A stretch of 64,000 bases of DNA from Gammaproteobacteria bacterium (GTDB lineage: Bacteria; Pseudomonadota; Gammaproteobacteria; UBA4575). The position numbers and the translations under genes are program-made. Positions 1 to 30,299 of this stretch are shown piece by piece. Location: NCBI GenBank assembly GCA_965222615.1, contig CBDCUI010000007.1:192001-256000 (forward strand), written 5' to 3'. Every line of letters begins with the position of its first letter. Within the stretch, counting starts at the first letter, position 1. The notes beneath the pieces were generated by a model. The model worked only from the letters and a program-made list of their open reading frames with translations, searched no databases and had not been told where the DNA came from.

Positions 1-446
1 GTGGCCTCTTGTGTTACTGTGCATGACGTTTGACTTCCAGCAACAGGCGTTAGTGCTGTTGGCCCACTACAGCGGTCAGGAGTTGCATTATTGCATGAAT
101 ATAAACTGGGTCCAGAAACTAATGCCGCAGGATTGCCGCCAATACTTAAACACAAAGCAAAGTTAATATTGCCATCTCCAGGAGTATCGGTATCAAATAG
201 AATACAAGCGTCTCCAGTATTATTGCCTGGCAAACCTGTTTCATCCCAACTAAGTTGCACATCGTAGCTAGTAGGTAAATTACTTTCATCGATACAAAGT
301 TGCGTTAAATCAGATTGGCCATTTTCATCGTTCGCACCCCCAATATCTTTAGAACAAGTAAACGCTGCATATGAAAACGACGAGTATAATATTGTTAATG
401 CTATTAAACCTAAAATCTGTAAAGTTTTTAATAAAATTTTATGCAT
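1..446 (-). CDS. Secreted Cys-rich protein, 5' part only (runs off window start); probably co-transcribed with the giant surface protein
   Basis: Not in the ORF track; translated by hand from ATG 446: MHKILLKTLQILGLIALTILYSSFSYA|AFTCSKDIGGANDENGQSDLTQLCIDES...GDACILFDTDTPGDGNINFALCLS...SCNNATPDRCSGP. Open to position 1, Sec-type signal peptide, 11 bp after the stop of the giant gene. Confidence 0.85.
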   Translation of the reverse strand, partial: MHKILLKTLQILGLIALTILYSSFSYAAFTCSKDIGGANDENGQSDLTQLCIDESNLPTSYDVQLSWDETGLPGNNTGDACILFDTDTPGDGNINFALCLSIGGNPAALVSGPSLYSCNNATPDRCSGPTALTPVAGSQTSCTVTQEA

Positions 447-457
447 AACTAAATTAT

Positions 458-3400
458 TTAATATTTTCCAGTGATATCAAAGAACCAACCATTCGAGTCG
501 TAATCGTTATCGGTTAAGTCATCACTAAAGTCAGTAAAGTTATAACCTGCACCCACTTTTAAGTGATCTCCAATATGGCGATACATACCGACTAGTGCTC
601 CGTCTTTATGGTCGTCGTTTTCTTCGGTTTCTAACCAACGATATTCAAACAATGCATCCCATTTCTTCAGCAAGTGATAACGTGCACGGGCAACGGCTAA
701 GTGTGCACCGGTTTCAAACCATGGACCCGCGCCACGTGTTAAACGCGTATCGCCTGTCTTATAGGCAAGTTTGGCACCTATCTCCCACTTCTGATTCAAG
801 TCATACAACCCTTCAATGGCAAACACATGGCTACGTTGATCAGCCAGCGAGGTGTCTTGACCGGTGGTAGCCAAATCATAAATAAAGGTGTACTTACCCA
901 ACAGATTGAGTCGGTCGTTAAAGGCCGGTCGATAGGCGAAACCTAAATCAAGTTCTACATACTTGCCTTCATCATTGTCATTGGCACTGCTGTGCGTAGT
1001 AGATAAATCAAGTTTACCTAACCAACGCAGGCTTTCACTTTGTTGCCATTCAATAGCATTGGTAGTTAACCATTGTGAAGTGTCTTCATTGCTAGCTTCG
1101 TTTTCGTCTTGGCGATACTCAAGTACGGTTGAGAATTTCAAATCATCATCGATGAATTTCGCACCCAAGGTCGCGGCACGGCGATCAAAATCGCCAGCAT
1201 CTTGTTCGATATCGTTAGTTTGTACTGAAGCTGATAATCTCCACTGCTCAGTCAGGTCGAAATCTAAACCATAGGTGCGAGCAACACTTTGTTCATGTTC
1301 ATGTTCACCTTCACCAAACTGGCTTTCTGAATACAGTGACAGACCATTACCATAACGCTTGCGCGCGCCAAAGGTAAACATGTTTTCAAAACTGTCGGTG
1401 CGATCTGGATCAATTGCATAGCTTCCATATAGTTCGAGTCCATTGGCGGTAGTGTAATTGGTACCCACTTGGTTAACCGCGCCACTTCCAAAACCGGCTT
1501 CCGCACTGATATTAAGATTTGGAGTAATGTCATATTCAAAACCAGCAATTACTGCATCACCTCGATCACCAGTGGCAACCTCACCTTTAACTGCGAGCTT
1601 GTCACTGACTTGTTTCTCTATACCTGCCGTGACTAAATCGTTATCTTCATATTCATCATCTTCTTCGATTACGGTTTGACCGCTCGCATATACATTAGTG
1701 TGTTCATCAAGGTTATAGCGCACTTCTACACCACCTAAAGTGGCTTCACTATCTACCCCAATACCCGAATCGTCCTCATCCTTTTCATGACGGAGCTCAG
1801 CACCAACACTGAGCTTATCGGTAAGCTCGTAGTCGGCTTGAATACTGAGTGTCGTCAATTCATTTTGAGTTTTTCTCTCCAGCTGTGTGGCCCTGGCAGT
1901 TAAACCCAAACGATCGGTCATTAACCACTGTGCTTCAATTCCCGTGTCCGTCGTTTCGATGCCATCATCCAGTCGCGCGGTGGATGAGAACCCTGCATCG
2001 CGGTCTTTCCACCAACCCAGTATATAACCTTCTTGATGATCGCTAAGCTCGGCAAAGTTTATGCGCGCCTCAACCCCTACCGCATTGCCATTTGATCCTG
2101 CATTGCTGGTACTAAGCGTATTAAAACTTATACCGCCGTTCGCAGAGGTAAAGCTATTACTTGCTTGGGCAGCGTCCGATTCGGCATACTCCAGTTTTAG
2201 ATAAGTACCTTTACCAGCACGTAAAGTTACATCGGAACCCTTGAGCTCATAATCAGTTCCATCTCGCTCTTCGTTTACATAAGTGCCGCCGATGGCGATG
2301 TAATCATTTAACCAAGCCTTACCTCGCGCACCCGTAGTGAGATCATCTGCAGTAAAGGCATCCGGTCGATATTCATAATCCACCAACAAGAACACATCAT
2401 CACCTTCCAGCGGTGTTGATTTAATGATGGCGGGTCCGCTACGCAGTTGCACCTGAGATAACGGGCGGGTCAGGATGATACGACCTTGGATATAATCGAT
2501 GTCGTAATCTCGACCATGTTCAAGCACAATATTTTCAACGATTTGTTCGGTATCGCGCCGACGTACTTCTACCCAAACTTTTTCCGAACCTTGCACCACA
2601 TCGGTATCACGCAAGTAGTAAAGTGAACCACCAGTACCTTCAAATTCATTATGTGCCGCAGCAGTTTGTGCTTCACTGGCAAAAGCGTGAATTTCATGCT
2701 TGTGCTCACCAAAGCTGGTGGTGTCTACATTACGGTGTTCAAGCTTGGCACCATACAAGCTACGGTTATATTGCGCGAACTCGGTACCGGTGAGATCGGT
2801 ATTGTAATTACCCCACAAGGCACGACTCTTATCCCAATCGACACGAATATAGAATGCACCTTGACTGTCGGTATCATCGATGGTGGTGGAGTCATCACCA
2901 TAAACTGCATATTGCTGTTCGGGATCGAGCCTTCTGAAAATAGCGCTTGGATCTTCTTCTTCAAGACGATCATGTAATTTATGTAATTCATCTTCGGTAG
3001 TATCTAATTGTGCTGTAACTAAATACTTACCTTTGATTTTACCTTTTAAGTAAAAGGCAACACGGCCATCAACGTAAACTTCTTCATCGAAATGGTCATC
3101 ATCACCTAACGGTTCGACCGAACCGGAAACACTGTTTTCACCGACGGTAAGATTAGCAATACCGACCATGAACATGTATTTACCACTGACATTTACATTT
3201 AAGGTGCGATCGTAATCAATTTCATTGCCGTCACTAACCTTCACCGTTAAATCGTGCTGTCCCACAGGTAAGTGTTGTTCTACAACAAACTTACCTTCTT
3301 CATCTATCACCGCTTTTTCACCATTAATGGTAATGACATAGTCTGTATCGACATCGAGTCCATTTACACGAATGCGCGAACCACTAATTGGTATAGTTTG

Positions 3401-6400
3401 ACGCACTAGACTGGATTCACCATAGGCAGCATTGGCTACTTCGGTTTCATCTACTTCCGGTTCACTAAAGCGTCTTTCAAGATTGGTTAATTCTTTATCG
3501 ACAACCGCAAGCACATGTGGTGCGGTTTCATCTATGCGTCCTTGTTTATCATAGGCCTTTAATACATAAGTTAAGCTTTCACCTGGCTCAAAATATTTCG
3601 CATCGATTTGTTGCGCATTCCATTCTATAGCTTCTGCTAAATAGATCTCCTTACCACTTAAGGTATCGATAGGTGTAATTAAATCGCGATCATCGTGACT
3701 ATAAATTTCCAATTCCCAATGATCGATAAACGCCGCGTAGTTACTGTATAACTGGAAGCGTACAGGTTGCGTAACTTTGCCATTCTCGAACACAACACTA
3801 CCCAGTGCAGTAACATTTAAACGTGGATCAATAATGGCAGGATCTTCTACTGCCCAAATAGCTCCCCCGTTAGGTAATGTAACTTCACGTTTTATGGCCG
3901 GACGTTCTACTGGCACATAATCAACGTTAACAACACGTTTAACTGTGGTTTCATCGTACAGAACTTGTACTTCGACTCTACGATTACGCGCCATTCCCGA
4001 TGCAGTTGCATTAGAAGCTACTGGCACATCCGGACCTTTGCCTTCAATGATGATCTTGCTTTCTTCTAAAGCAAGTGTTGCTTTTAATTGTTCTGCAACT
4101 TGTTCAGCACGCGCAATCGATAAACCATAATTGTCTTTATAGATCGGCTTGATTCTATGCGATAACCTCTGTGGATCAGTATGACCGACAATTTTCACGC
4201 GGATATTTTCTTTATCCTGAAGAGCATCCATCACTTCTTGTAAACGCTTCAGTTGCCTATTGGTTATTTCTGCTTCGCCGGAGCCATAGAAAATCGGACT
4301 GATTACGTTGTTAATTTCTTTTGTTTCAGTAACCTCAGTTTCGTTTTCAACTTTACGTGCAACTCCGAACTGCTTATCGCCATAGGGCACGTCTTGTTGC
4401 GGCAACTTGACACCAAAGTTGAACTTAGACATTAAGGCTTGAGTAATTCGAAGCACACGTGGGTTTTCTGTGGTAAAGGTGCTGCCTTCTGGCAACGTCG
4501 CAGGATCTACTTTAATAATAAAGTTGCGACCGCGTTCCCAACGCCCACCATCGATATCCGCCAAGTGATACCGTCCGTATTGATCCGTTTCTACGATTAA
4601 ACCTTTCACCGTAGCCAAACGAACACCTGGAATACCCATTTCGTGCACACCGAGGTTGATGATAGTGATTACCAAGTCATCTCCCTCGCGTTCACTGCTT
4701 ACTACGATATCTTGTGCAGTGAGTCCTTTGGCTTTCTTACCAACATGTTTTTCTGTGACATTGCCGTCATCATCCACTTTGATGACGGTGCCTTCATCAG
4801 TTACAACATGGAAATTATTGTTGCCCTCAAGGTTAAGCGGCATGTGCACACTGACTTGATGATCTTCAAGTGAATCAAGCACACTGCTACGACCTTTTAT
4901 GGTACCAACAAGATGACTGTTCCAACCAAAGTGATCACTCTTGATTTTCACTCCAGTAGCTGTAGCGCTATCCTGCCAACCATCTTCGTCACTATCGTTA
5001 AAGACTTTTCCTATGATAGTGGTCTTTTGCAAAATCGGATCTTGTACCACGCGCACCGTTGCGCTGGCTGCATTACTAAGCGTAATGCCACCCACACCAC
5101 CAATAACTTGTGCAGTGTTGGTGTATTCACCTTCAACAACACCCGAGCTGACACGTAATAGATAACGAATTAATAAAGTTTCATTGGCTGCGACATCGAT
5201 ATCTTCAAAAGTAATCGGATCTGAACCTGTTACGCTTACAGTGGATTGAATTTCGTCACCCGTGTTGATAATCCCATCCGGACCGGCAGTGATCACTAAT
5301 GCCGAGTCACTTACATAACTAAAGCCAGCAGGAATATTATCGGGCACATCGATATTGGTGAAAGCAATTGCATCTGTGTTTTCAATTTGTAATGTGTATT
5401 GAACCACATCACCAATCACAACCTCGTCTGGTGTAGCCGTCTTCGACAACAACAATGGATTGGTAAACGTCGTACAGTTGGTTAACGGAATATTATTATT
5501 GATAATGAACGGATCACCCGCTTCAATAATAAAGTTTGTATACCACGGTGTATTCGCTGCTGCACTAAAATCAGTTAAAAACCCAGTTGTCCCAGATTCA
5601 TTACCACCCAATGAAGTTGGGTTAGGGCCACCGGTGGGGTCAATTGCCCCTGCAGTCAATCGAGTTGTACTTAAGGTGGTACCCGGCGGAATCGTAATGG
5701 CCATGGTATACGTATCGTTACCGTTAAAGACAGCTTGATAACGACCCGTTGAACCATCTTCAATAGTAGTAACGATACCCGCACCAGTAGGAGTAAAACT
5801 GACATTTCCGCCTGGAATAATCTGACCGGTATCTTCACAATAGAAATAACCGATCGGGTCAAAATCTTGGCAATCTGGGACACCATCCCCATCACGATCA
5901 CCCGTACAAGGCTCTACTAGATCAGGAATACCATCCCCATCGGTATCAATACTAACTAGTACAGAATCCTGATCGTCTTCACTAGGAGTATTATTATTTG
6001 GTGTTGAGTCAGGATCCGGTTGATCACATGCACTGACTTCTGCAGTATTTAAGTATTCTCCCGCAGCGCCCGTTGCAGCATTCACTGTCGCGGTAATATT
6101 TAAAGTCGCATTACCGGAATTGGATATCGTGCCTACCGCCCACACACCAGTAACACTATTATAAGTACCAGAGCTATCATCACTTACATACGTGAAGCCA
6201 ACCGGCAATTGATCGATCACTTCTACATCCGTTGCCGCTCCTGTGCCTGCATTATTCACTGTAATCGTGAAGATAACATTGTCACCAATCGCTGGTGCCG
6301 CACTATTTACAACCTTAGTCAGTGAAAGATCAGCACTATGATTTTGTGCCACCGGCGTGCTCAGCGTCACCGTCGTCGGACCCGGCACTTCGGTACTGGT

Positions 6401-9400
6401 CACACTACCGGTGTTGTCGACACTGCCCGCATCCACTTCCGCTTGCGTCACCACATGCGTACCCGTCAACACACAGGTCGCACTCGCCGCTAAGGTCGCA
6501 CACGTATTCGAGTTCGGCGTTAACAACGCATCACTCACCACCACGTTGTTCAACGTCGTCGTGCCGTCGTTGGTCACCGTCACACTGTACGTTAAGGTGT
6601 CATTTAAGCTGACATCGCCCGAACCGTCTTCATCCGCATGGCTATCCAAGGTCTTGGCAATCGCTAAACTATGATTTTGTGCCACCGGCGTGCTCAGCGT
6701 CACCGTCGTCGGACCCGGCACTTCGGTACTGGTCACACTACCGGTGTTGTCGACACTGCCCGCATCCACTTCCGCTTGCGTCACCACATGCGTACCCGTC
6801 AACACACAGGTCGCACTCGCCGCTAAGGTCGCACACGTATTCGAGTTCGGCGTTAACAACGCATCACTCACCACCACGTTGTTCAACGTCGTCGTGCCGT
6901 CGTTGGTCACCGTCACACTGTACGTTAAGGTGTCATTTAAGCTGACATCGCCCGAACCGTCTTCATCCGCATGGCTATCCAAGGTCTTGGCAATCGCTAA
7001 ACTATGATTTTGTGCCACCGGCGTGCTCAGCGTCACCGTCGTCGGACCCGGCACTTCGGTACTGGTCACACTACCGGTGTTGTCGACACTGCCCGCATCC
7101 ACTTCCGCTTGCGTCACCACATGCGTACCCGTCAACACACAGGTCGCACTCGCCGCTAAGGTCGCACACGTATTCGAGTTCGGCGTTAACAACGCATCAC
7201 TCACCACCACGTTGTTCAACGTCGTCGTGCCGTCGTTGGTCACCGTCACACTGTACGTTAAGGTGTCATTTAAGCTGACATCGCCCGAACCGTCTTCATC
7301 CGCATGGCTATCCAAGGTCTTGGCAATCGCTAAACTATGATTTTGTGCCACCGGCGTGCTCAGCGTCACCGTCGTCGGACCCGGCACTTCGGTACTGGTC
7401 ACACTACCGGTGTTGTCGACACTGCCCGCATCCACTTCCGCTTGCGTCACCACATGCGTACCCGTCAACACACAGGTCGCACTCGCCGCTAAGGTCGCAC
7501 ACGTATTCGAGTTCGGCGTTAACAACGCATCACTCACCACCACGTTGTTCAACGTCGTCGTGCCGTCGTTGGTCACCGTCACACTGTACGTTAAGGTGTC
7601 ATTTAAGCTGACATCGCCCGAACCGTCTTCATCCGCATGGCTATCCAAGGTCTTGGCAATCGCTAAACTATGATTTTGTGCCACCGGCGTGCTCAGCGTC
7701 ACCGTCGTCGGACCCGGCACTTCGGTACTGGTCACACTACCGGTGTTGTCGACACTGCCCGCATCCACTTCCGCTTGCGTCACCACATGCGTACCCGTCA
7801 ACACACAGGTCGCACTCGCCGCTAAGGTCGCACACGTATTCGAGTTCGGCGTTAACAACGCATCACTCACCACCACGTTGTTCAACGTCGTCGTGCCGTC
7901 GTTGGTCACCGTCACACTGTACGTTAAGGTGTCATTTAAGCTGACATCGCCCGAACCGTCTTCATCCGCATGGCTATCCAAGGTCTTGGCAATCGCTAAA
8001 CTATGATTTTGTGCCACCGGCGTGCTCAGCGTCACCGTCGTCGGACCCGGCACTTCGGTACTGGTCACACTACCGGTGTTGTCGACACTGCCCGCATCCA
8101 CTTCCGCTTGCGTCACCACATGCGTACCCGTCAACACACAGGTCGCACTCGCCGCTAAGGTCGCACACGTATTCGAGTTCGGCGTTAACAACGCATCACT
8201 CACCACCACGTTGTTCAACGTCGTCGTGCCGTCGTTGGTCACCGTCACACTGTACGTTAAGGTGTCATTTAAGCTGACATCGCCCGAACCGTCTTCATCC
8301 GCATGGCTATCCAAGGTCTTGGCAATCGCTAAACTATGATTTTGTGCCACCGGCGTGCTCAGCGTCACCGTCGTCGGACCCGGCACTTCGGTACTGGTCA
8401 CACTACCGGTGTTGTCGACACTGCCCGCATCCACTTCCGCTTGCGTCACCACATGCGTACCCGTCAACACACAGGTCGCACTCGCCGCTAAGGTCGCACA
8501 CGTATTCGAGTTCGGCGTTAACAACGCATCACTCACCACCACGTTGTTCAACGTCGTCGTGCCGTCGTTGGTCACCGTCACACTGTACGTTAAGGTGTCA
8601 TTTAAGCTGACATCGCCCGAACCGTCTTCATCCGCATGGCTATCCAAGGTCTTGGCAATCGCTAAACTATGATTTTGTGCCACCGGCGTGCTCAGCGTCA
8701 CCGTCGTCGGACCCGGCACTTCGGTACTGGTCACACTACCGGTGTTGTCGACACTGCCCGCATCCACTTCCGCTTGCGTCACCACATGCGTACCCGTCAA
8801 CACACAGGTCGCACTCGCCGCTAAGGTCGCACACGTATTCGAGTTCGGCGTTAACAACGCATCACTCACCACCACGTTGTTCAACGTCGTCGTGCCGTCG
8901 TTGGTCACCGTCACACTGTACGTTAAGGTGTCATTTAAGCTGACATCGCCCGAACCGTCTTCATCCGCATGGCTATCCAAGGTCTTGGCAATCGCTAAAC
9001 TATGATTTTGTGCCACCGGCGTGCTCAGCGTCACCGTCGTCGGACCCGGCACTTCGGTACTGGTCACACTACCGGTGTTGTCGACACTGCCCGCATCCAC
9101 TTCCGCTTGCGTCACCACATGCGTACCCGTCAACACACAGGTCGCACTCGCCGCTAAGGTCGCACACGTATTCGAGTTCGGCGTTAACAACGCATCACTC
9201 ACCACCACGTTGTTCAACGTCGTCGTGCCGTCGTTGGTCACCGTCACACTGTACGTTAAGGTGTCATTTAAGCTGACATCGCCCGAACCGTCTTCATCCG
9301 CATGGCTATCCAAGGTCTTGGCAATCGCTAAACTATGATTTTGTGCCACCGGCGTGCTCAGCGTCACCGTCGTCGGACCCGGCACTTCGGTACTGGTCAC

Positions 9401-12400
9401 ACTACCGGTGTTGTCGACACTGCCCGCATCCACTTCCGCTTGCGTCACCACATGCGTACCCGTCAACACACAGGTCGCACTCGCCGCTAAGGTCGCACAC
9501 GTATTCGAGTTCGGCGTTAACAACGCATCACTCACCACCACGTTGTTCAACGTCGTCGTGCCGTCGTTGGTCACCGTCACACTGTACGTTAAGGTGTCAT
9601 TTAAGCTGACATCGCCCGAACCGTCTTCATCCGCATGGCTATCCAAGGTCTTGGCAATCGCTAAACTATGATTTTGTGCCACCGGCGTGCTCAGCGTCAC
9701 CGTCGTCGGACCCGGCACTTCGGTACTGGTCACACTACCGGTGTTGTCGACACTGCCCGCATCCACTTCCGCTTGCGTCACCACATGCGTACCCGTCAAC
9801 ACACAGGTCGCACTCGCCGCTAAGGTCGCACACGTATTCGAGTTCGGCGTTAACAACGCATCACTCACCACCACGTTGTTCAACGTCGTCGTGCCGTCGT
9901 TGGTCACCGTCACACTGTACGTTAAGGTGTCATTTAAGCTGACATCGCCCGAACCGTCTTCATCCGCATGGCTATCCAAGGTCTTGGCAATCGCTAAACT
10001 ATGATTTTGTGCCACCGGCGTGCTCAGCGTCACCGTCGTCGGACCCGGCACTTCGGTACTGGTCACACTACCGGTGTTGTCGACACTGCCCGCATCCACT
10101 TCCGCTTGCGTCACCACATGCGTACCCGTCAACACACAGGTCGCACTCGCCGCTAAGGTCGCACACGTATTCGAGTTCGGCGTTAACAACGCATCACTCA
10201 CCACCACGTTGTTCAACGTCGTCGTGCCGTCGTTGGTCACCGTCACACTGTACGTTAAGGTGTCATTTAAGCTGACATCGCCCGAACCGTCTTCATCCGC
10301 ATGGCTATCCAAGGTCTTGGCAATCGCTAAACTATGATTTTGTGCCACCGGCGTGCTCAGCGTCACCGTCGTCGGACCCGGCACTTCGGTACTGGTCACA
10401 CTACCGGTGTTGTCGACACTGCCCGCATCCACTTCCGCTTGCGTCACCACATGCGTACCCGTCAACACACAGGTCGCACTCGCCGCTAAGGTCGCACACG
10501 TATTCGAGTTCGGCGTTAACAACGCATCACTCACCACCACGTTGTTCAACGTCGTCGTGCCGTCGTTGGTCACCGTCACACTGTACGTTAAGGTGTCATT
10601 TAAGCTGACATCGCCCGAACCGTCTTCATCCGCATGGCTATCCAAGGTCTTGGCAATCGCTAAACTATGATTTTGTGCCACCGGCGTGCTCAGCGTCACC
10701 GTCGTCGGACCCGGCACTTCGGTACTGGTCACACTACCGGTGTTGTCGACACTGCCCGCATCCACTTCCGCTTGCGTCACCACATGCGTACCCGTCAACA
10801 CACAGGTCGCACTCGCCGCTAAGGTCGCACACGTATTCGAGTTCGGCGTTAACAACGCATCACTCACCACCACGTTGTTCAACGTCGTCGTGCCGTCGTT
10901 GGTCACCGTCACACTGTACGTTAAGGTGTCATTTAAGCTGACATCGCCCGAACCGTCTTCATCCGCATGGCTATCCAAGGTCTTGGCAATCGCTAAACTA
11001 TGATTTTGTGCCACCGGCGTGCTCAGCGTCACCGTCGTCGGACCCGGCACTTCGGTACTGGTCACACTACCGGTGTTGTCGACACTGCCCGCATCCACTT
11101 CCGCTTGCGTCACCACATGCGTACCCGTCAACACACAGGTCGCACTCGCCGCTAAGGTCGCACACGTATTCGAGTTCGGCGTTAACAACGCATCACTCAC
11201 CACCACGTTGTTCAACGTCGTCGTGCCGTCGTTGGTCACCGTCACACTGTACGTTAAGGTGTCATTTAAGCTGACATCGCCCGAACCGTCTTCATCCGCA
11301 TGGCTATCCAAGGTCTTGGCAATCGCTAAACTATGATTTTGTGCCACCGGCGTGCTCAGCGTCACCGTCGTCGGACCCGGCACTTCGGTACTGGTCACAC
11401 TACCGGTGTTGTCGACACTGCCCGCATCCACTTCCGCTTGCGTCACCACATGCGTACCCGTCAACACACAGGTCGCACTCGCCGCTAAGGTCGCACACGT
11501 ATTCGAGTTCGGCGTTAACAACGCATCACTCACCACCACGTTGTTCAACGTCGTCGTGCCGTCGTTGGTCACCGTCACACTGTACGTTAAGGTGTCATTT
11601 AAGCTGACATCGCCCGAACCGTCTTCATCCGCATGGCTATCCAAGGTCTTGGCAATCGCTAAACTATGATTTTGTGCCACCGGCGTGCTCAGCGTCACCG
11701 TCGTCGGACCCGGCACTTCGGTACTGGTCACACTACCGGTGTTGTCGACACTGCCCGCATCCACTTCCGCTTGCGTCACCACATGCGTACCCGTCAACAC
11801 ACAGGTCGCACTCGCCGCTAAGGTCGCACACGTATTCGAGTTCGGCGTTAACAACGCATCACTCACCACCACGTTGTTCAACGTCGTCGTGCCGTCGTTG
11901 GTCACCGTCACACTGTACGTTAAGGTGTCATTTAAGCTGACATCGCCCGAACCGTCTTCATCCGCATGGCTATCCAAGGTCTTGGCAATCGCTAAACTAT
12001 GATTTTGTGCCACCGGCGTGCTCAGCGTCACCGTCGTCGGACCCGGCACTTCGGTACTGGTCACACTACCGGTGTTGTCGACACTGCCCGCATCCACTTC
12101 CGCTTGCGTCACCACATGCGTACCCGTCAACACACAGGTCGCACTCGCCGCTAAGGTCGCACACGTATTCGAGTTCGGCGTTAACAACGCATCACTCACC
12201 ACCACGTTGTTCAACGTCGTCGTGCCGTCGTTGGTCACCGTCACACTGTACGTTAAGGTGTCATTTAAGCTGACATCGCCCGAACCGTCTTCATCCGCAT
12301 GGCTATCCAAGGTCTTGGCAATCGCTAAACTATGATTTTGTGCCACCGGCGTGCTCAGCGTCACCGTCGTCGGACCCGGCACTTCGGTACTGGTCACACT

Positions 12401-15400
12401 ACCGGTGTTGTCGACACTGCCCGCATCCACTTCCGCTTGCGTCACCACATGCGTACCCGTCAACACACAGGTCGCACTCGCCGCTAAGGTCGCACACGTA
12501 TTCGAGTTCGGCGTTAACAACGCATCACTCACCACCACGTTGTTCAACGTCGTCGTGCCGTCGTTGGTCACCGTCACACTGTACGTTAAGGTGTCATTTA
12601 AGCTGACATCGCCCGAACCGTCTTCATCCGCATGGCTATCCAAGGTCTTGGCAATCGCTAAACTATGATTTTGTGCCACCGGCGTGCTCAGCGTCACCGT
12701 CGTCGGACCCGGCACTTCGGTACTGGTCACACTACCGGTGTTGTCGACACTGCCCGCATCCACTTCCGCTTGCGTCACCACATGCGTACCCGTCAACACA
12801 CAGGTCGCACTCGCCGCTAAGGTCGCACACGTATTCGAGTTCGGCGTTAACAACGCATCACTCACCACCACGTTGTTCAACGTCGTCGTGCCGTCGTTGG
12901 TCACCGTCACACTGTACGTTAAGGTGTCATTTAAGCTGACATCGCCCGAACCGTCTTCATCCGCATGGCTATCCAAGGTCTTGGCAATCGCTAAACTATG
13001 ATTTTGTGCCACCGGCGTGCTCAGCGTCACCGTCGTCGGACCCGGCACTTCGGTACTGGTCACACTACCGGTGTTGTCGACACTGCCCGCATCCACTTCC
13101 GCTTGCGTCACCACATGCGTACCCGTCAACACACAGGTCGCACTCGCCGCTAAGGTCGCACACGTATTCGAGTTCGGCGTTAACAACGCATCACTCACCA
13201 CCACGTTGTTCAACGTCGTCGTGCCGTCGTTGGTCACCGTCACACTGTACGTTAAGGTGTCATTTAAGCTGACATCGCCCGAACCGTCTTCATCCGCATG
13301 GCTATCCAAGGTCTTGGCAATCGCTAAACTATGATTTTGTGCCACCGGCGTGCTCAGCGTCACCGTCGTCGGACCCGGCACTTCGGTACTGGTCACACTA
13401 CCGGTGTTGTCGACACTGCCCGCATCCACTTCCGCTTGCGTCACCACATGCGTACCCGTCAACACACAGGTCGCACTCGCCGCTAAGGTCGCACACGTAT
13501 TCGAGTTCGGCGTTAACAACGCATCACTCACCACCACGTTGTTCAACGTCGTCGTGCCGTCGTTGGTCACCGTCACACTGTACGTTAAGGTGTCATTTAA
13601 GCTGACATCGCCCGAACCGTCTTCATCCGCATGGCTATCCAAGGTCTTGGCAATCGCTAAACTATGATTTTGTGCCACCGGCGTGCTCAGCGTCACCGTC
13701 GTCGGACCCGGCACTTCGGTACTGGTCACACTACCGGTGTTGTCGACACTGCCCGCATCCACTTCCGCTTGCGTCACCACATGCGTACCCGTCAACACAC
13801 AGGTCGCACTCGCCGCTAAGGTCGCACACGTATTCGAGTTCGGCGTTAACAACGCATCACTCACCACCACGTTGTTCAACGTCGTCGTGCCGTCGTTGGT
13901 CACCGTCACACTGTACGTTAAGGTGTCATTTAAGCTGACATCGCCCGAACCGTCTTCATCCGCATGGCTATCCAAGGTCTTGGCAATCGCTAAACTATGA
14001 TTTTGTGCCACCGGCGTGCTCAGCGTCACCGTCGTCGGACCCGGCACTTCGGTACTGGTCACACTACCGGTGTTGTCGACACTGCCCGCATCCACTTCCG
14101 CTTGCGTCACCACATGCGTACCCGTCAACACACAGGTCGCACTCGCCGCTAAGGTCGCACACGTATTCGAGTTCGGCGTTAACAACGCATCACTCACCAC
14201 CACGTTGTTCAACGTCGTCGTGCCGTCGTTGGTCACCGTCACACTGTACGTTAAGGTGTCATTTAAGCTGACATCGCCCGAACCGTCTTCATCCGCATGG
14301 CTATCCAAGGTCTTGGCAATCGCTAAACTATGATTTTGTGCCACCGGCGTGCTCAGCGTCACCGTCGTCGGACCCGGCACTTCGGTACTGGTCACACTAC
14401 CGGTGTTGTCGACACTGCCCGCATCCACTTCCGCTTGCGTCACCACATGCGTACCCGTCAACACACAGGTCGCACTCGCCGCTAAGGTCGCACACGTATT
14501 CGAGTTCGGCGTTAACAACGCATCACTCACCACCACGTTGTTCAACGTCGTCGTGCCGTCGTTGGTCACCGTCACACTGTACGTTAAGGTGTCATTTAAG
14601 CTGACATCGCCCGAACCGTCTTCATCCGCATGGCTATCCAAGGTCTTGGCAATCGCTAAACTATGATTTTGTGCCACCGGCGTGCTCAGCGTCACCGTCG
14701 TCGGACCCGGCACTTCGGTACTGGTCACACTACCGGTGTTGTCGACACTGCCCGCATCCACTTCCGCTTGCGTCACCACATGCGTACCCGTCAACACACA
14801 GGTCGCACTCGCCGCTAAGGTCGCACACGTATTCGAGTTCGGCGTTAACAACGCATCACTCACCACCACGTTGTTCAACGTCGTCGTGCCGTCGTTGGTC
14901 ACCGTCACACTGTACGTTAAGGTGTCATTTAAGCTGACATCGCCCGAACCGTCTTCATCCGCATGGCTATCCAAGGTCTTGGCAATCGCTAAACTATGAT
15001 TTTGTGCCACCGGCGTGCTCAGCGTCACCGTCGTCGGACCCGGCACTTCGGTACTGGTCACACTACCGGTGTTGTCGACACTGCCCGCATCCACTTCCGC
15101 TTGCGTCACCACATGCGTACCCGTCAACACACAGGTCGCACTCGCCGCTAAGGTCGCACACGTATTCGAGTTCGGCGTTAACAACGCATCACTCACCACC
15201 ACGTTGTTCAACGTCGTCGTGCCGTCGTTGGTCACCGTCACACTGTACGTTAAGGTGTCATTTAAGCTGACATCGCCCGAACCGTCTTCATCCGCATGGC
15301 TATCCAAGGTCTTGGCAATCGCTAAACTATGATTTTGTGCCACCGGCGTGCTCAGCGTCACCGTCGTCGGACCCGGCACTTCGGTACTGGTCACACTACC

Positions 15401-16129
15401 GGTGTTGTCGACACTGCCCGCATCCACTTCCGCTTGCGTCACCACATGCGTACCCGTCAACACACAGGTCGCACTCGCCGCTAAGGTCGCACACGTATTC
15501 GAGTTCGGCGTTAACAACGCATCACTCACCACCACGTTGTTCAACGTCGTCGTGCCGTCGTTGGTCACCGTCACACTGTACGTTAAGGTGTCATTTAAGC
15601 TGACATCGCCCGAACCGTCTTCATCCGCATGGCTATCCAAGGTCTTGGCAATCGCTAAACTATGATTTTGTGCCACCGGCGTGCTCAGCGTCACCGTCGT
15701 CGGACCCGGCACTTCGGTACTGGTCACACTACCGGTGTTGTCGACACTGCCCGCATCCACTTCCGCTTGCGTCACCACATGCGTACCCGTCAACACACAG
15801 GTCGCACTCGCCGCTAAGGTCGCACACGTATTCGAGTTCGGCGTTAACAACGCATCACTCACCACCACGTTGTTCAACGTCGTCGTGCCGTCGTTGGTCA
15901 CCGTCACACTGTACGTTAAGGTGTCATTTAAGCTGACATCGCCCGAACCGTCTTCATCCGCATGGCTATCCAAGGTCTTGGCAATCGCTAAACTATGATT
16001 TTGTGCCACCGGCGTGCTCAGCGTCACCGTCGTCGGACCCGGCACTTCGGTACTGGTCACACTACCGGTGTTGTCGACACTGCCCGCATCCACTTCCGCT
16101 TGCGTCACCACATGCGTACCCGTCAACAC
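458..16129 (-). CDS. Giant surface adhesin-like protein, main part: DUF11/DUF7507-like Ig repeats, DxDxDG Ca loops, SdrD-B-like domain, OmpA domain, C-terminal outer-membrane beta-barrel
   Basis: 5223-aa ORF. 111-aa repeats (LAIAKT..TLTYSVTVTNDG..VVSD..VTQAEVDAGSVDNTGSV); DUF11 domains (ADLSLTKVV..VIDQLPVG; LLLSKTATP..PDNIPAGF); OmpA motifs (IVGHTD..N.GLSIARA..RNRRVEV); alternating beta-strand pattern ending in WFFDITGKY. Same frame as 16301-17641. Confidence 0.9.
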   Translation of the reverse strand: MLTGTHVVTQAEVDAGSVDNTGSVTSTEVPGPTTVTLSTPVAQNHSLAIAKTLDSHADEDGSGDVSLNDTLTYSVTVTNDGTTTLNNVVVSDALLTPNSNTCATLAASATCVLTGTHVVTQAEVDAGSVDNTGSVTSTEVPGPTTVTLSTPVAQNHSLAIAKTLDSHADEDGSGDVSLNDTLTYSVTVTNDGTTTLNNVVVSDALLTPNSNTCATLAASATCVLTGTHVVTQAEVDAGSVDNTGSVTSTEVPGPTTVTLSTPVAQNHSLAIAKTLDSHADEDGSGDVSLNDTLTYSVTVTNDGTTTLNNVVVSDALLTPNSNTCATLAASATCVLTGTHVVTQAEVDAGSVDNTGSVTSTEVPGPTTVTLSTPVAQNHSLAIAKTLDSHADEDGSGDVSLNDTLTYSVTVTNDGTTTLNNVVVSDALLTPNSNTCATLAASATCVLTGTHVVTQAEVDAGSVDNTGSVTSTEVPGPTTVTLSTPVAQNHSLAIAKTLDSHADEDGSGDVSLNDTLTYSVTVTNDGTTTLNNVVVSDALLTPNSNTCATLAASATCVLTGTHVVTQAEVDAGSVDNTGSVTSTEVPGPTTVTLSTPVAQNHSLAIAKTLDSHADEDGSGDVSLNDTLTYSVTVTNDGTTTLNNVVVSDALLTPNSNTCATLAASATCVLTGTHVVTQAEVDAGSVDNTGSVTSTEVPGPTTVTLSTPVAQNHSLAIAKTLDSHADEDGSGDVSLNDTLTYSVTVTNDGTTTLNNVVVSDALLTPNSNTCATLAASATCVLTGTHVVTQAEVDAGSVDNTGSVTSTEVPGPTTVTLSTPVAQNHSLAIAKTLDSHADEDGSGDVSLNDTLTYSVTVTNDGTTTLNNVVVSDALLTPNSNTCATLAASATCVLTGTHVVTQAEVDAGSVDNTGSVTSTEVPGPTTVTLSTPVAQNHSLAIAKTLDSHADEDGSGDVSLNDTLTYSVTVTNDGTTTLNNVVVSDALLTPNSNTCATLAASATCVLTGTHVVTQAEVDAGSVDNTGSVTSTEVPGPTTVTLSTPVAQNHSLAIAKTLDSHADEDGSGDVSLNDTLTYSVTVTNDGTTTLNNVVVSDALLTPNSNTCATLAASATCVLTGTHVVTQAEVDAGSVDNTGSVTSTEVPGPTTVTLSTPVAQNHSLAIAKTLDSHADEDGSGDVSLNDTLTYSVTVTNDGTTTLNNVVVSDALLTPNSNTCATLAASATCVLTGTHVVTQAEVDAGSVDNTGSVTSTEVPGPTTVTLSTPVAQNHSLAIAKTLDSHADEDGSGDVSLNDTLTYSVTVTNDGTTTLNNVVVSDALLTPNSNTCATLAASATCVLTGTHVVTQAEVDAGSVDNTGSVTSTEVPGPTTVTLSTPVAQNHSLAIAKTLDSHADEDGSGDVSLNDTLTYSVTVTNDGTTTLNNVVVSDALLTPNSNTCATLAASATCVLTGTHVVTQAEVDAGSVDNTGSVTSTEVPGPTTVTLSTPVAQNHSLAIAKTLDSHADEDGSGDVSLNDTLTYSVTVTNDGTTTLNNVVVSDALLTPNSNTCATLAASATCVLTGTHVVTQAEVDAGSVDNTGSVTSTEVPGPTTVTLSTPVAQNHSLAIAKTLDSHADEDGSGDVSLNDTLTYSVTVTNDGTTTLNNVVVSDALLTPNSNTCATLAASATCVLTGTHVVTQAEVDAGSVDNTGSVTSTEVPGPTTVTLSTPVAQNHSLAIAKTLDSHADEDGSGDVSLNDTLTYSVTVTNDGTTTLNNVVVSDALLTPNSNTCATLAASATCVLTGTHVVTQAEVDAGSVDNTGSVTSTEVPGPTTVTLSTPVAQNHSLAIAKTLDSHADEDGSGDVSLNDTLTYSVTVTNDGTTTLNNVVVSDALLTPNSNTCATLAASATCVLTGTHVVTQAEVDAGSVDNTGSVTSTEVPGPTTVTLSTPVAQNHSLAIAKTLDSHADEDGSGDVSLNDTLTYSVTVTNDGTTTLNNVVVSDALLTPNSNTCATLAASATCVLTGTHVVTQAEVDAGSVDNTGSVTSTEVPGPTTVTLSTPVAQNHSLAIAKTLDSHADEDGSGDVSLNDTLTYSVTVTNDGTTTLNNVVVSDALLTPNSNTCATLAASATCVLTGTHVVTQAEVDAGSVDNTGSVTSTEVPGPTTVTLSTPVAQNHSLAIAKTLDSHADEDGSGDVSLNDTLTYSVTVTNDGTTTLNNVVVSDALLTPNSNTCATLAASATCVLTGTHVVTQAEVDAGSVDNTGSVTSTEVPGPTTVTLSTPVAQNHSLAIAKTLDSHADEDGSGDVSLNDTLTYSVTVTNDGTTTLNNVVVSDALLTPNSNTCATLAASATCVLTGTHVVTQAEVDAGSVDNTGSVTSTEVPGPTTVTLSTPVAQNHSLAIAKTLDSHADEDGSGDVSLNDTLTYSVTVTNDGTTTLNNVVVSDALLTPNSNTCATLAASATCVLTGTHVVTQAEVDAGSVDNTGSVTSTEVPGPTTVTLSTPVAQNHSLAIAKTLDSHADEDGSGDVSLNDTLTYSVTVTNDGTTTLNNVVVSDALLTPNSNTCATLAASATCVLTGTHVVTQAEVDAGSVDNTGSVTSTEVPGPTTVTLSTPVAQNHSLAIAKTLDSHADEDGSGDVSLNDTLTYSVTVTNDGTTTLNNVVVSDALLTPNSNTCATLAASATCVLTGTHVVTQAEVDAGSVDNTGSVTSTEVPGPTTVTLSTPVAQNHSLAIAKTLDSHADEDGSGDVSLNDTLTYSVTVTNDGTTTLNNVVVSDALLTPNSNTCATLAASATCVLTGTHVVTQAEVDAGSVDNTGSVTSTEVPGPTTVTLSTPVAQNHSLAIAKTLDSHADEDGSGDVSLNDTLTYSVTVTNDGTTTLNNVVVSDALLTPNSNTCATLAASATCVLTGTHVVTQAEVDAGSVDNTGSVTSTEVPGPTTVTLSTPVAQNHSLAIAKTLDSHADEDGSGDVSLNDTLTYSVTVTNDGTTTLNNVVVSDALLTPNSNTCATLAASATCVLTGTHVVTQAEVDAGSVDNTGSVTSTEVPGPTTVTLSTPVAQNHSLAIAKTLDSHADEDGSGDVSLNDTLTYSVTVTNDGTTTLNNVVVSDALLTPNSNTCATLAASATCVLTGTHVVTQAEVDAGSVDNTGSVTSTEVPGPTTVTLSTPVAQNHSLAIAKTLDSHADEDGSGDVSLNDTLTYSVTVTNDGTTTLNNVVVSDALLTPNSNTCATLAASATCVLTGTHVVTQAEVDAGSVDNTGSVTSTEVPGPTTVTLSTPVAQNHSADLSLTKVVNSAAPAIGDNVIFTITVNNAGTGAATDVEVIDQLPVGFTYVSDDSSGTYNSVTGVWAVGTISNSGNATLNITATVNAATGAAGEYLNTAEVSACDQPDPDSTPNNNTPSEDDQDSVLVSIDTDGDGIPDLVEPCTGDRDGDGVPDCQDFDPIGYFYCEDTGQIIPGGNVSFTPTGAGIVTTIEDGSTGRYQAVFNGNDTYTMAITIPPGTTLSTTRLTAGAIDPTGGPNPTSLGGNESGTTGFLTDFSAAANTPWYTNFIIEAGDPFIINNNIPLTNCTTFTNPLLLSKTATPDEVVIGDVVQYTLQIENTDAIAFTNIDVPDNIPAGFSYVSDSALVITAGPDGIINTGDEIQSTVSVTGSDPITFEDIDVAANETLLIRYLLRVSSGVVEGEYTNTAQVIGGVGGITLSNAASATVRVVQDPILQKTTIIGKVFNDSDEDGWQDSATATGVKIKSDHFGWNSHLVGTIKGRSSVLDSLEDHQVSVHMPLNLEGNNNFHVVTDEGTVIKVDDDGNVTEKHVGKKAKGLTAQDIVVSSEREGDDLVITIINLGVHEMGIPGVRLATVKGLIVETDQYGRYHLADIDGGRWERGRNFIIKVDPATLPEGSTFTTENPRVLRITQALMSKFNFGVKLPQQDVPYGDKQFGVARKVENETEVTETKEINNVISPIFYGSGEAEITNRQLKRLQEVMDALQDKENIRVKIVGHTDPQRLSHRIKPIYKDNYGLSIARAEQVAEQLKATLALEESKIIIEGKGPDVPVASNATASGMARNRRVEVQVLYDETTVKRVVNVDYVPVERPAIKREVTLPNGGAIWAVEDPAIIDPRLNVTALGSVVFENGKVTQPVRFQLYSNYAAFIDHWELEIYSHDDRDLITPIDTLSGKEIYLAEAIEWNAQQIDAKYFEPGESLTYVLKAYDKQGRIDETAPHVLAVVDKELTNLERRFSEPEVDETEVANAAYGESSLVRQTIPISGSRIRVNGLDVDTDYVITINGEKAVIDEEGKFVVEQHLPVGQHDLTVKVSDGNEIDYDRTLNVNVSGKYMFMVGIANLTVGENSVSGSVEPLGDDDHFDEEVYVDGRVAFYLKGKIKGKYLVTAQLDTTEDELHKLHDRLEEEDPSAIFRRLDPEQQYAVYGDDSTTIDDTDSQGAFYIRVDWDKSRALWGNYNTDLTGTEFAQYNRSLYGAKLEHRNVDTTSFGEHKHEIHAFASEAQTAAAHNEFEGTGGSLYYLRDTDVVQGSEKVWVEVRRRDTEQIVENIVLEHGRDYDIDYIQGRIILTRPLSQVQLRSGPAIIKSTPLEGDDVFLLVDYEYRPDAFTADDLTTGARGKAWLNDYIAIGGTYVNEERDGTDYELKGSDVTLRAGKGTYLKLEYAESDAAQASNSFTSANGGISFNTLSTSNAGSNGNAVGVEARINFAELSDHQEGYILGWWKDRDAGFSSTARLDDGIETTDTGIEAQWLMTDRLGLTARATQLERKTQNELTTLSIQADYELTDKLSVGAELRHEKDEDDSGIGVDSEATLGGVEVRYNLDEHTNVYASGQTVIEEDDEYEDNDLVTAGIEKQVSDKLAVKGEVATGDRGDAVIAGFEYDITPNLNISAEAGFGSGAVNQVGTNYTTANGLELYGSYAIDPDRTDSFENMFTFGARKRYGNGLSLYSESQFGEGEHEHEQSVARTYGLDFDLTEQWRLSASVQTNDIEQDAGDFDRRAATLGAKFIDDDLKFSTVLEYRQDENEASNEDTSQWLTTNAIEWQQSESLRWLGKLDLSTTHSSANDNDEGKYVELDLGFAYRPAFNDRLNLLGKYTFIYDLATTGQDTSLADQRSHVFAIEGLYDLNQKWEIGAKLAYKTGDTRLTRGAGPWFETGAHLAVARARYHLLKKWDALFEYRWLETEENDDHKDGALVGMYRHIGDHLKVGAGYNFTDFSDDLTDNDYDSNGWFFDITGKY

Positions 16130-16724
16130 ACAGGTCGCACTCGCCGCTAAGGTCGCACACGTATTCGAGTTCGGCGTACCCGTAACAACGCATCACAGGT
16201 CGCAACAACGCATCACTCACCACCACGTTGTTCAACGTTCGTCCTGTACGTTAAGGTGTCATTTAAGCTGACATCGCCCGAACCGTCTTCATCCGCATGG
16301 CTATCCAAGGTCAACTATGGTGTCATTTAAGCTGACATCGCCCGAACCGTCTTCATCCGCATGGCTATCCAAGGTCTTGGCAATCGCTAAACTATGATTT
16401 TGTGCCACCGGCGTGCTCAGCGTCACCGTCGTCGGACCCGGCACTTCGGTACTGGTCACACTACCGGTGTTGTCGACACTGCCCGCATCCACTTCCGCTT
16501 GCGTCACCACATGCGTACCCGTCAACACACAGGTCGCACTCGCCGCTAAGGTCGCACACGTATTCGAGTTCGGCGTTAACAACGCATCACTCACCACCAC
16601 GTTGTTCAACGTCGTCGTGCCGTCGTTGGTCACCGTCACACTGTACGTTAAGGTGTCATTTAAGCTGACATCGCCCGAACCGTCTTCATCCGCATGGCTA
16701 TCCAAGGTCTTGGCAATCGCTAAA
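6335..16724. repeat. Intragenic tandem repeat, 333-bp unit x31 (29 identical, one scrambled 399-bp unit, one more identical)
   Basis: Shadow ORFs recur every 333 bp from 6357 to 16014, then at 16413. I saw no substitutions between intact copies. Confidence 0.97.
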
Positions 16725-17641
16725 GAGGGTATAGCTGCAGTCAAATCGTCAGTTGCAGTTGCACTGTCAGCTGCTTCATCCGTGCTTACTACGCCCGTGG
16801 TATTGGTGTGCGTACCTTGTGTGGCAGAGGTCACGTCTACTGTAATCGAGCAACTGCCCGACGCCGGAATGGTGCCACCGCTTAGTGTCACATTACCGCC
16901 GCCATCCACCGCAGTTAGGATGCCGCCACAATCGGTGCTTGCATTCGCTGGTGTCGTATTGGTAATCTCAGTTGGGTAGGTATCCGTCATCGCTGCGTTA
17001 GTTAACGCAAACGCGTTCGGATTCGTGATCGTGATCGTTAATGTACTGGTACCGTTTACCGCGATGTTGTCCGGACTAAAGACTTTCGTTATTGTTGGTG
17101 CTTCATTGTCATCATTAGTGTAAGTACAAGTGACATTGTCGTTTACCGCCAAGGTTAAGTTCGGCGCCGCCTGTGTTACACCACTGACATCAGTACCACC
17201 AGCCGTGGCATTAGTACACGCTAAGGTCGTCCAGGTGTAACCCGCAATTGCAGCTTCGCTTAATACATACGTACCGACATTGACACTAGCATTGGTAACC
17301 GCCGCATCACCTTCGTTGCCACTGATCGTTTGTGGCCCGGTTGCAGTTAAGATGAAGTCAGTATCCACGGCAGTACCACCATCGTCATTGGTGACATCTT
17401 TCACTAAGGTCAAGACCGCTTTAGCGAGCGTATTACTATCCGTAGCGCTATTATTACCAGGCACAGGATCGGTTACACCGGGGGGGACTGTAACCGTTGC
17501 AGTATTGACTAAGGGATCTGGAAAACCAGCTTGAGACGAAAATGGAACCAATAAAATAATTAACGAAAAGAAATACTTACAGGTAGATGTAAGTTTGCGC
17601 ATTGGTTGCTTTGTTTGATTTCGTCCTATGAAAACCTGCAC
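16301..17641 (-). CDS. N-terminal part of the same giant protein (signal peptide, orphan DUF11 tail, SpaA-like domain, DUF11-like domain, first repeat); split from the main ORF by a scrambled repeat unit
   Basis: GTG 17641 has AAGGGA 8 nt upstream (alternative ATG 17602). Signal peptide ..KYFFSLIILLVPFSSQA|G. Contains one intact 111-aa repeat. In frame with 458-16129 (offset 1512 = 504 codons). Confidence 0.85.
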   Translation of the reverse strand: MQVFIGRNQTKQPMRKLTSTCKYFFSLIILLVPFSSQAGFPDPLVNTATVTVPPGVTDPVPGNNSATDSNTLAKAVLTLVKDVTNDDGGTAVDTDFILTATGPQTISGNEGDAAVTNASVNVGTYVLSEAAIAGYTWTTLACTNATAGGTDVSGVTQAAPNLTLAVNDNVTCTYTNDDNEAPTITKVFSPDNIAVNGTSTLTITITNPNAFALTNAAMTDTYPTEITNTTPANASTDCGGILTAVDGGGNVTLSGGTIPASGSCSITVDVTSATQGTHTNTTGVVSTDEAADSATATDDLTAAIPSLAIAKTLDSHADEDGSGDVSLNDTLTYSVTVTNDGTTTLNNVVVSDALLTPNSNTCATLAASATCVLTGTHVVTQAEVDAGSVDNTGSVTSTEVPGPTTVTLSTPVAQNHSLAIAKTLDSHADEDGSGDVSLNDTIVDLG

Positions 17642-17668
17642 TTAGTTAGTCCCTTAACAGCTTTATTA

Positions 17669-17912
17669 GGCCAAACCCGCCCGTAGACGATTTGGAAAAT
17701 TTCCAAATCGCTACTCAAAAAATGTATTGAGTAATTGAGGTCGAATTACCGAGTTAGTAACTGTTCAATAATCAGAACAGTCTCACTAAGTTATTGACTT
17801 TTTAGGAAAAATTAATTTCTCTAGTAATTGTCAATAGTACGGGCACAGCGTCAAATTTTAGACGCTCTAGCTCTCAAATCTAAGGATTTACTAAGGAAAA
17901 CCCGATTTAGGC
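17669..17912 (-). promoter_or_regulatory. Highly structured putative 5' leader of the giant-protein operon
   Basis: GCCCGTA 17679-85 pairs with TACGGGC 17838-44 and encloses hairpins at 17688-17710, 17712-17733, 17731-17749, 17754-17789 and 17792-17836. Further hairpins at 17847-66 and 17876-89. Confidence 0.55.
17850..17863. promoter_or_regulatory. FleQ-box-like operator candidate (GTCAAATTTTAGAC)
   Basis: One mismatch to GTCA-N6(AT-rich)-TGAC, upstream of an adhesin gene. Confidence 0.3.
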
Positions 17913-22515: not shown

Positions 22516-22521
22516 ACTAAA

Positions 22522-28641: not shown

Positions 28642-28678
28642 TTTTGTGTAATAAAACTTTTGAGTTTGGCTTTATTTA

Positions 28679-30070: not shown

Positions 30071-30299
30071 AAGTGTCTGTACGGATCAAATACACACCTA
30101 AAATCAATGAGATCCAGACAGTAATGATACGGGGGATCGGCTATTACCTAGGTATAGGTGTGTCGTGAAAACGCCTACTTTTATCGGTTAGAATACCGAT
30201 TACCAATAGAAATGAAATCCAATTGGCTATCACTACCGGCAACCAAATAAGGCTCATTCAACAGTCGGCAAAAGGCCTTTATGAATTTGTGGTGATAGT

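Follow-up and report, generated by a model that had tools for sequence, protein, structure and literature searches.

A DUF11/CLIPPER domain divided between two adjacent genes may mount a tip protein, perhaps covalently, on an outer-membrane-anchored adhesin stalk

Incomplete immunoglobulin (Ig)-like folds that are completed by a strand of the neighbouring subunit are the basis of the chaperone-usher pili and of the type V pili of Bacteroidota, assemblies that depend on a chaperone and an usher, or on proteolytic priming, and that are non-covalent. Among engineered proteins, split isopeptide pairs are available as SpyTag/SpyCatcher, isopeptag/pilin-C and SnoopTag/SnoopCatcher; in the isopeptag pair the peptide contributes the Asn, and the protein the Lys and an acidic residue. 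Strand complementation, the autocatalytic isopeptide bond and the engineered Tag/Catcher pair all have precedents; a natural isopeptide domain shared by two genes and mounting a tip on an anchored stalk in Gram-negatives was not found in the full-text literature searched, supplements aside. Here we analyse a stretch of 64,000 nucleotides (hereafter, the window) from a Gammaproteobacteria bacterium (GenBank assembly GCA_965222615.1, contig CBDCUI010000007.1, positions 192,001 to 256,000), in which a fibrillar adhesin gene and the gene next to it appear to share a domain of the family DUF11, also called CLIPPER: the mature N-terminus of the adhesin carries the end of the domain (the tag), and the C-terminus of the neighbouring secreted protein carries the rest (the catcher). 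On balance, we favour the reading that one DUF11/CLIPPER domain is split over the two adjacent genes and docks a tip on a stalk, probably covalently.

In the engineered pairs, as here, a small piece with one reactive residue completes a truncated Ig-like domain that bears the others; however, those pairs are Gram-positive CnaB- or CnaA-type domains cut in the laboratory, whereas here the halves are natural genes of a Gram-negative, the domain is a CLIPPER domain, and the termini are conserved and specific to the split (catcher ...DY, tag (F/Y)P). Unlike in chaperone-usher and type V pili, two strands would be donated and a reactive triad restored, and no usher (PF00577) was found in the 99.79%-complete genome, for which no separate search for the PapD chaperone family was made. 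A search of the same genome for sortases (PF04203), of which LPXTG motifs were not part, was likewise negative.

DUF11 was renamed CLIPPER in 2025, and the CLIPPER crystal structure 9IFR, from an OmpA-anchored fibrillar adhesin of Acinetobacter silvestris, contains a Lys715-Asn806 bond with Asp748 as the catalytic residue (PMC12617251). The domain studied here shares with 9IFR the Pfam family, the fold (as seen in an unsplit homologue) and, by alignment, the Lys-Asp-Asn triad, and in both cases the host protein combines a tip, a CLIPPER stalk and an OmpA-like anchor (PMC12617251); however, in 9IFR domain and bond lie within one chain, whereas here the cut falls in the loop ahead of the Asn strand and the parts are distributed over two genes, each product having its own signal peptide. 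The main text of that paper, supplements aside, does not use the words 'split', 'truncated', 'SpyTag' or 'donor strand' (PMC12617251), and no split DUF11/CLIPPER domain is described in the full-text literature searched, supplementary material aside.

The closest natural analogues are BsaA and the archaeal threads, and the closest engineered ones are split CnaA/CnaB pairs; Jo-In is an engineered split pair made from RrgA (PMC5333627). BsaA of Clostridium perfringens polymerises by 'donor-strand-exchange-and-lock', in which, much as proposed below, each secreted subunit lends its N-terminal segment as a strand to the following one, where it is held by an autocatalytic Asn-Lys lock with an acidic catalyst and no sortase (PMC11580942). 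BsaA, however, has a TasA-like fold and forms a homopolymeric matrix fibre in a Gram-positive (PMC11580942), whereas the system in the window would be a CnaA-like CLIPPER domain in a mainly heterotypic tip-to-stalk joint, with its stalk in the outer membrane. The archaeal thread protein Saci_0406 also combines donor-strand complementation with an apparent intermolecular isopeptide bond; there, however, the bond runs from the N-terminal amine of Asp24 to Asn57 of subunit n-2, a Lys-Asp-Asn triad is absent, the head is type-1-pilin-like and the product is a homopolymer (PMC9715654).

The N-terminal part of the adhesin gene is laid out as follows, with residues numbered from the GTG start of the open reading frame (ORF); the likely true start is the ATG of M14, at 17600-17602.

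16301..17641, minus strand: N-terminal adhesin ORF, 446 aa.
17528..17602, minus strand: Sec signal peptide of the adhesin, M14-A38, with predicted cleavage after SSQA; assigned by eye from the translation.
17426..17527, minus strand: tag, the last two beta-strands of a DUF11/CLIPPER domain, mature residues 1-34.
17123..17422, minus strand: SpaA_2 prealbumin-like domain directly after the tag (Pfam PF19403, 2e-18, residues 74-173).

Read by eye, the signal peptide has a positive n-region, a hydrophobic core and an end in ...SSQA before a G, and an A-x-A-type site directly precedes the tag in all aligned homologues. In translation the tag is exactly G39-L72 of the ORF and holds N46 (N8 after signal peptide removal), predicted to be the isopeptide Asn, with neither a Lys strand nor an Asp strand ahead of it. 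Pfam and NCBIfam scans of the ORF gave nothing on the 34-mer itself, and Pfam scans of the 34-mer alone and of a 44-mer returned no family even at E 10; custom hidden Markov models (HMMs) were therefore needed. The first, built from 37 full canonical DUF11 repeats and 129 positions long, matched adhesin residues 38-73 on positions 92-127 only, with 36.7 bits. Because its source proteins had been retrieved with the tag, this model is partly circular, and a second one (139 positions) was therefore derived from 30 unsplit homologues that the catcher profile had retrieved; it puts the tag of the window on positions 106-135. The initial annotation had taken the 34-mer behind the signal peptide for the end of a DUF11 domain and nothing more, followed by a complete SpaA-like domain, and both observations stand; the C-terminal-only match that it expected from a PF01345 scan was obtained with the custom models and not from Pfam.

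Of 109 candidate proteins, 66 long ones, some of them from Tahibacter and Dokdonella, have DUF11 repeats whose ends match a 47-residue query around the tag, with identities of 56-86% in all but the weakest match (42%). All 10 tags that were collected sit directly behind a signal peptide, and F2, P5, L6, N8, T9, A10 and T11 are invariant among them. Two other explanations of the tag were considered and dropped: it is not a phase-shifted end of the adhesin's own repeats, which are of the DUF7507 type and end in VDNTGSVTS..., and it is not a sorting signal for many substrates, since a single protein of the source genome carries it.

If the tag is the end of a DUF11 domain, the beginning might be carried by another secreted subunit, as had been suggested from the sequence at the outset. 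A genome search with PF01345 located the partner by a match just left of the window:

1..446, minus strand: first 148 codons of the catcher gene, starting 11 nt after the adhesin stop codon.
G000:C7:191220-192000, left of the window, minus strand: remainder of the catcher gene, including the truncated DUF11 (residues 306-409).
11217..12446 of locus L013, minus strand: the catcher ORF, 409 aa.

The 409-aa product consists of a signal peptide, a Cys-rich N-terminal domain without family match, SpaA_4 and a C-terminal DUF11. PF01345 aligns to residues 308-400 on model positions 1-96 of 114, and its score of 43.8 bits exceeds the gathering cut-off of 24.6; the domain ends just where the strands of the adhesin's tag begin, and it carries a Lys, K313, and a catalytic-type Asp, D347. 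For the N-terminal domain of this protein (residues 28-210) a search of ESM Atlas gave a best value of 0.85, below the level of a lead, and named no family. The expected operon partner with a C-terminally truncated DUF11 does exist, as a secreted protein 11 nt downstream of the adhesin, and it is complementary to the tag; the suggestion needs correcting if the 5223-aa ORF described below was meant as the downstream protein.

In relatives, too, the two halves are complementary. Related genomes contain 17 distinct catchers, all at a protein C-terminus and all ending in ...VPV(Q)FSxx(M/P)xDY. On the first HMM these cover positions 1/2 to 89-95, next to 92-127 for the tag; on the second, 17/17 catchers cover 2 to 102-105 and 10/10 tags 105/106 to 131-136. 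Neither polypeptide holds the whole of this DUF11 domain; the two carry complementary, non-overlapping parts of it. Unsplit relatives are continuous over the split point (...VPVxFAxx(L/M)Txx(D/N)PLVNTA...), which places the cut in a loop and shows that the DPLVNTAT of the tag is native to this DUF11 subfamily. At the new chain ends, the catcher finishes with Y in 31/34 cases, mostly as ...DY or ...AY, and the mature tag starts with (F/Y)-P/R-x-P, where unsplit homologues have (L/M)-T-x-x; these ends of catcher and tag may form a clasp.

Structure prediction agrees with this division. AlphaFold2 gives the catcher alone a predicted local distance difference test score (pLDDT) of 90.2 and seven strands, the last at E88-97, and an unsplit homologue a pLDDT of 88.2 with two additional strands, E112-117 and E120-127, at the positions of the tag. 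The best match of the unsplit model in the PDB is 9IFR (E 5.1e-5, template modelling (TM) score 0.70, 122/123 columns), with 5MKC also among its matches; the catcher model reaches its highest TM score with 9IFR (0.69, root-mean-square deviation 3.2), which by E-value (7.4e-3) comes 7th. The models have the CnaA-like sandwich of DUF11/CLIPPER. As sequence queries against the PDB, neither a canonical DUF11 protein nor the catcher protein nor the catcher profile retrieved a CLIPPER entry; only a complete domain within the adhesin itself reached 9IFR by sequence, and weakly (phmmer, E 2.6):

5972..6334, minus strand: complete canonical DUF11 inside the adhesin (PF01345, 109.7 bits), used for mapping the triad onto 9IFR.

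In the alignment to 9ifr_A, Lys715 falls on the Lys of ITK, the Asp on that of xxDxLP and Asn806 on the Asn of LNTA; the Asp of the 9IFR chain, located by position count, agrees with the published number to within one residue. N46 of the tag, proposed early on as the isopeptide Asn, aligns with Asn806. The Lys and the Asp are shared by 34/34 distinct catchers, the Asn by 10/10 aligned tags and by the 13 other N-terminal tags listed, and 30/30 unsplit homologues keep all three residues. By these alignments, the predicted Lys-Asp-Asn triad is divided between the two proteins, K313 and D347 lying on the catcher and N46 on the tag.

Taking these observations together, it is very likely that tag and catcher bind physically; that an intermolecular covalent Lys-Asn bond forms is a closer call, to which we lean slightly. 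The same split-domain docking could instead work by non-covalent strand complementation only, the triad being kept for folding or ancestry, which is possible but rather unlikely in our judgement. All of the pairing evidence fits such docking equally well. Section 2.3 of the CLIPPER paper describes some DUF11 domains without the bond (PMC12617251), which means that a conserved triad is no proof of one, and BsaA oligomers with the N35A substitution resist sodium dodecyl sulfate without the bond until they are heated (PMC11580942). On the other hand, 34/34 catchers and every tag examined keep their share of the triad, though it is not always present across the Pfam family, and without a bond the tip junction would be the weakest link of a stalk made of cross-linked domains.

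Tag and catcher also occur together. Among 36 genomes of the same family, the tag was found in 9 and the catcher in 10, all 9 tag genomes having a catcher; the tenth catcher genome, in which no tag was matched, is a 190-contig assembly. The tag and its signal peptide are kept in these 9 genomes of 4 genera, the window's own included, and none of the close homologues has a full DUF11 at this position: all 9 carry the two-strand tag behind the signal peptide. The domain that follows it varies (SpaA_2, a DUF7507-type domain, canonical DUF11 or another type), while the tag remains 55-77% identical.

These data bear on two explanations that deny the tag a partner. One is that it is a deletion scar, a pseudogene or an assembly artefact without function. 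The adhesin frame is indeed broken at a garbled repeat in this assembly; however, the varied domains behind the tag argue against a deletion scar, the tag and signal peptide persist across the four genera, the catchers share their end point, with a ...DY terminus in 17/17, and short-read contigs of two runs, perhaps from the source sample, reproduce 16695-17518 and 16816-17700 without difference. We regard this explanation as extremely improbable. The other is that the tag is a cap in cis: a vestigial hairpin, packed against the adhesin's first full domain and without relation to the truncated DUF11 of the neighbour. In every homologue the tag does directly precede a beta-sandwich domain, yet it is the tag that is conserved and the next domain that changes, and a partner lacking exactly these strands consistently lies close by, in either gene order and across several lineages, which leaves a cis cap very improbable.

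The catcher proteins of related genomes are encoded in frames of 324-1490 aa, with stalk-type domains (SpaA_3/4, DUF7933, DUF7927) and N-terminal regions that mostly have no Pfam match. They have a signal peptide and no tag; the tag HMM matched 2/162 ORFs, both adhesins. In three genomes (G028, G014 and G006) one or two catcher genes follow the adhesin gene and are themselves followed by tkt. At several loci two or three different proteins ending in a catcher follow the adhesin in a row, as at L040 (a metagenome-assembled genome (MAG), 320-5304), L037 (G014) and L021/L026 (G001); the N-terminal domains of such serial proteins are mutually unrelated and mostly without family match, and these proteins may be alternative tips for one stalk. 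A catcher might also bind the tag only transiently, as a periplasmic chaperone or export helper for the adhesin N-terminus and not as a lasting tip. Sec takes both proteins to the periplasm, as such a helper would need; however, the catchers are large and diverse, with adhesin-type stalk domains and unassigned N-terminal domains, up to three different ones accompany one stalk, unlike a chaperone, and the triad suits an irreversible bond, so that we consider a helper improbable.

A survey of more distant loci, covering the best 80 by catcher profile, extended the pairing beyond the family. In this set 23 ORFs terminate where the catcher does, and another runs on into an unrelated 26-aa tail; among the loci are some from Stenotrophomonas, Lysobacter, Luteimonas, Pseudoxanthomonas and alphaproteobacterial MAGs. 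A gene with signal peptide and tag begins 150-340 nt after the catcher stop in 11 of the 16 catcher-end loci outside the Thiotrichales group. In Stenotrophomonas, Pseudoxanthomonas and two alphaproteobacterial MAGs the same split is found with the gene order opposite to that in the window; catcher followed by tag is the order expected from simple fission. The paired tags and truncated domains that the initial annotation had proposed to look for are, then, kept in relatives and present in reverse order in distant lineages. There the tag opens frames of 5078 aa (Stenotrophomonas) and 3622 aa (Pseudoxanthomonas). Stenotrophomonas sp. JC08 (L090) has a chain of three genes, in which the one for a 468-aa protein bearing both parts stands between those for a catcher protein and for a tag protein; by HMM, proteins with both parts also occur in L048 (Luteimonas) and L056 (alphaproteobacterial), and a 300-aa protein of L060 (a Rhodospirillaceae MAG) joins a catcher to an N-terminal tag that was recognised by eye only. 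Proteins with both tag and catcher suggest candidate adaptor or polymerising subunits.

Behind its first domain, the adhesin continues as a long stalk with an anchor:

16739..17098, minus strand: DUF7933 (Pfam PF25564, 1.1e-30, residues 182-301).
16129..16376, minus strand: garbled repeat copy with a 64-bp duplication (Tandem Repeats Finder (TRF), 16255-16376, period 64, 1.9 copies).
6335..16312, minus strand: stalk of 30 near-identical 333-bp repeats (TRF, 30.0 copies, 99% match).
458..16129, minus strand: continuation ORF of the same adhesin gene, 5223 aa.
3980..4288, minus strand: OmpA-like peptidoglycan-binding domain of the anchor (PF00691, 1.3e-12).
461..3103 (approximate), minus strand: C-terminal region with an outer-membrane beta-barrel (PF13505 OMP_b-brl, 4.5e-09), ending ...GWFFDITGKY.

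Pfam places a DUF7507 at residues 305-404 of the 446-aa ORF, and each 333-bp repeat encodes one DUF7507 (CLIPPER_2) domain (PF24346, 60.3 bits each). The 99% uniformity of the repeats at 6335-16312 suggests recent expansion or continuing homogenisation of stalk length. The 5223-aa ORF contains, in order, the same repeats, the complete DUF11, TSP3-like motifs, further DUF11-like and SdrD-like domains, the OmpA-like domain and the beta-barrel. It is the interrupted continuation of the tag-bearing adhesin gene and not a separate protein; the homologue P0059 (2198 aa) is compact and intact, with the whole plan in a single chain, and its anchor domain matches OmpA/MotB entries in the PDB. The motifs YLNTAEV and YTNTAQV, first described as internal to the protein that bears the tag, belong to the same gene but lie in this separate ORF. 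Within 458-4288 the OmpA-like domain sits between the passenger and the large C-terminal barrel, a position from which it follows that the chain crosses the outer membrane N-terminal to the periplasmic domain.

The interruption itself lies in the garbled copy. The stop codon of the 446-aa ORF is at 16301-16303, inside this copy, and three reading frames are needed to traverse 16129-16376. Among contigs of 4 runs that lie on 16000-17700 (Logan), about 16114-16340 is nearly uncovered and no contig bridges it. The break may be an assembly error in long repeats, decay or phase variation. No RNA run is among the sequencing runs listed.

Taking into consideration the complementarity of the halves, the divided triad and the anchor, we propose the following assembly for the split domain. 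Both proteins would be exported by Sec. The mature N-terminus of the adhesin would supply the last two strands and the reactive Asn, and the catcher the first seven strands, the reactive Lys K313 and the catalytic Asp D347; by strand complementation, the tag would fill the catcher's open sandwich, and the 409-aa protein would thereby come to sit on the distal end of the anchored stalk. With the Lys-Asp-Asn triad restored, an isopeptide bond between the two chains would then probably form autocatalytically and make the junction as force-resistant as the cross-linked domains of the stalk. Where two or three catcher proteins accompany one tag, the tips may be interchangeable, and the tag-and-catcher proteins found elsewhere may act as adaptors or chain-forming subunits. 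The place and order of these events we infer: passing a tip through the barrel once it is folded and joined on in the periplasm would be difficult, and assembly after separate export is therefore favoured.

This export difficulty is one of several points that weigh against the proposal, next to the DUF11 domains without a bond mentioned above. The frame of the adhesin is broken 446 codons in, and that of the G006 homologue after 192 codons (L010, L035); if these breaks are real, the tag would here sit on a short unanchored fragment. In 4/16 of the loci outside the Thiotrichales group (L047, L049, L057 and L082) no adjacent tag was found. Finally, the co-folding of tag and catcher, carried out with custom alignments, lends the pairing weak support. 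Three runs gave an interface score (ipSAE) of 0.39, where the best of 3 controls gave 0.00, with contact agreement of at least 98% and a partner pLDDT of at least 62; the pass mark was reached by 58/80 solved complexes and 2/110 mismatched pairs, but passes at or below 0.60 comprise just 7 of the 80 solved complexes and both mismatched pairs, and such a weak pass is rated as more often wrong than right when no prior likelihood is considered. Halves of a split domain may, moreover, pass through their likeness to solved whole domains.

The locus has some further features. The genes around the pair are those for a peroxiredoxin, metK, ahcY, rsmE and tkt. A second large DUF11-repeat protein of the genome (L014, G000:C9:244887-248528; a 2847-aa frame) was matched by neither the tag nor the catcher query. 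A few kb from the adhesin, at 22039-30833 on the minus strand, lies the gene for a ChpA-like histidine kinase of 2039 aa with several Hpt domains as well as CheW and receiver domains, flanked by CheW genes and a methyl-accepting chemotaxis protein, which makes this a Pil-Chp-type chemosensory cluster.

More tentatively, and although we think it less likely than not, split CLIPPER domains may be a general self-assembly code of Gram-negative surface fibres that needs neither enzyme nor chaperone and works by autocatalytic Lys-Asn ligation outside the cytoplasm. Tips, adaptors and stalks would be exported separately, one stalk could be loaded with alternative tips, and the 468-aa JC08 and 300-aa Rhodospirillaceae proteins would extend or polymerise the fibre head to tail. 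If this is true, it would amount to a covalent pilus built without sortase or usher.

For the adhesin pair of the window and its relatives, formation of the bond would mean a second natural route to covalent fibres besides sortases, and would bear on how OmpA-anchored fibrillar adhesins are built and exported. Protein engineering would gain a set of Tag/Catcher pairs that co-evolved in nature and may be orthogonal, and modular adhesins could swap their tips without recombining a 17-kb gene.

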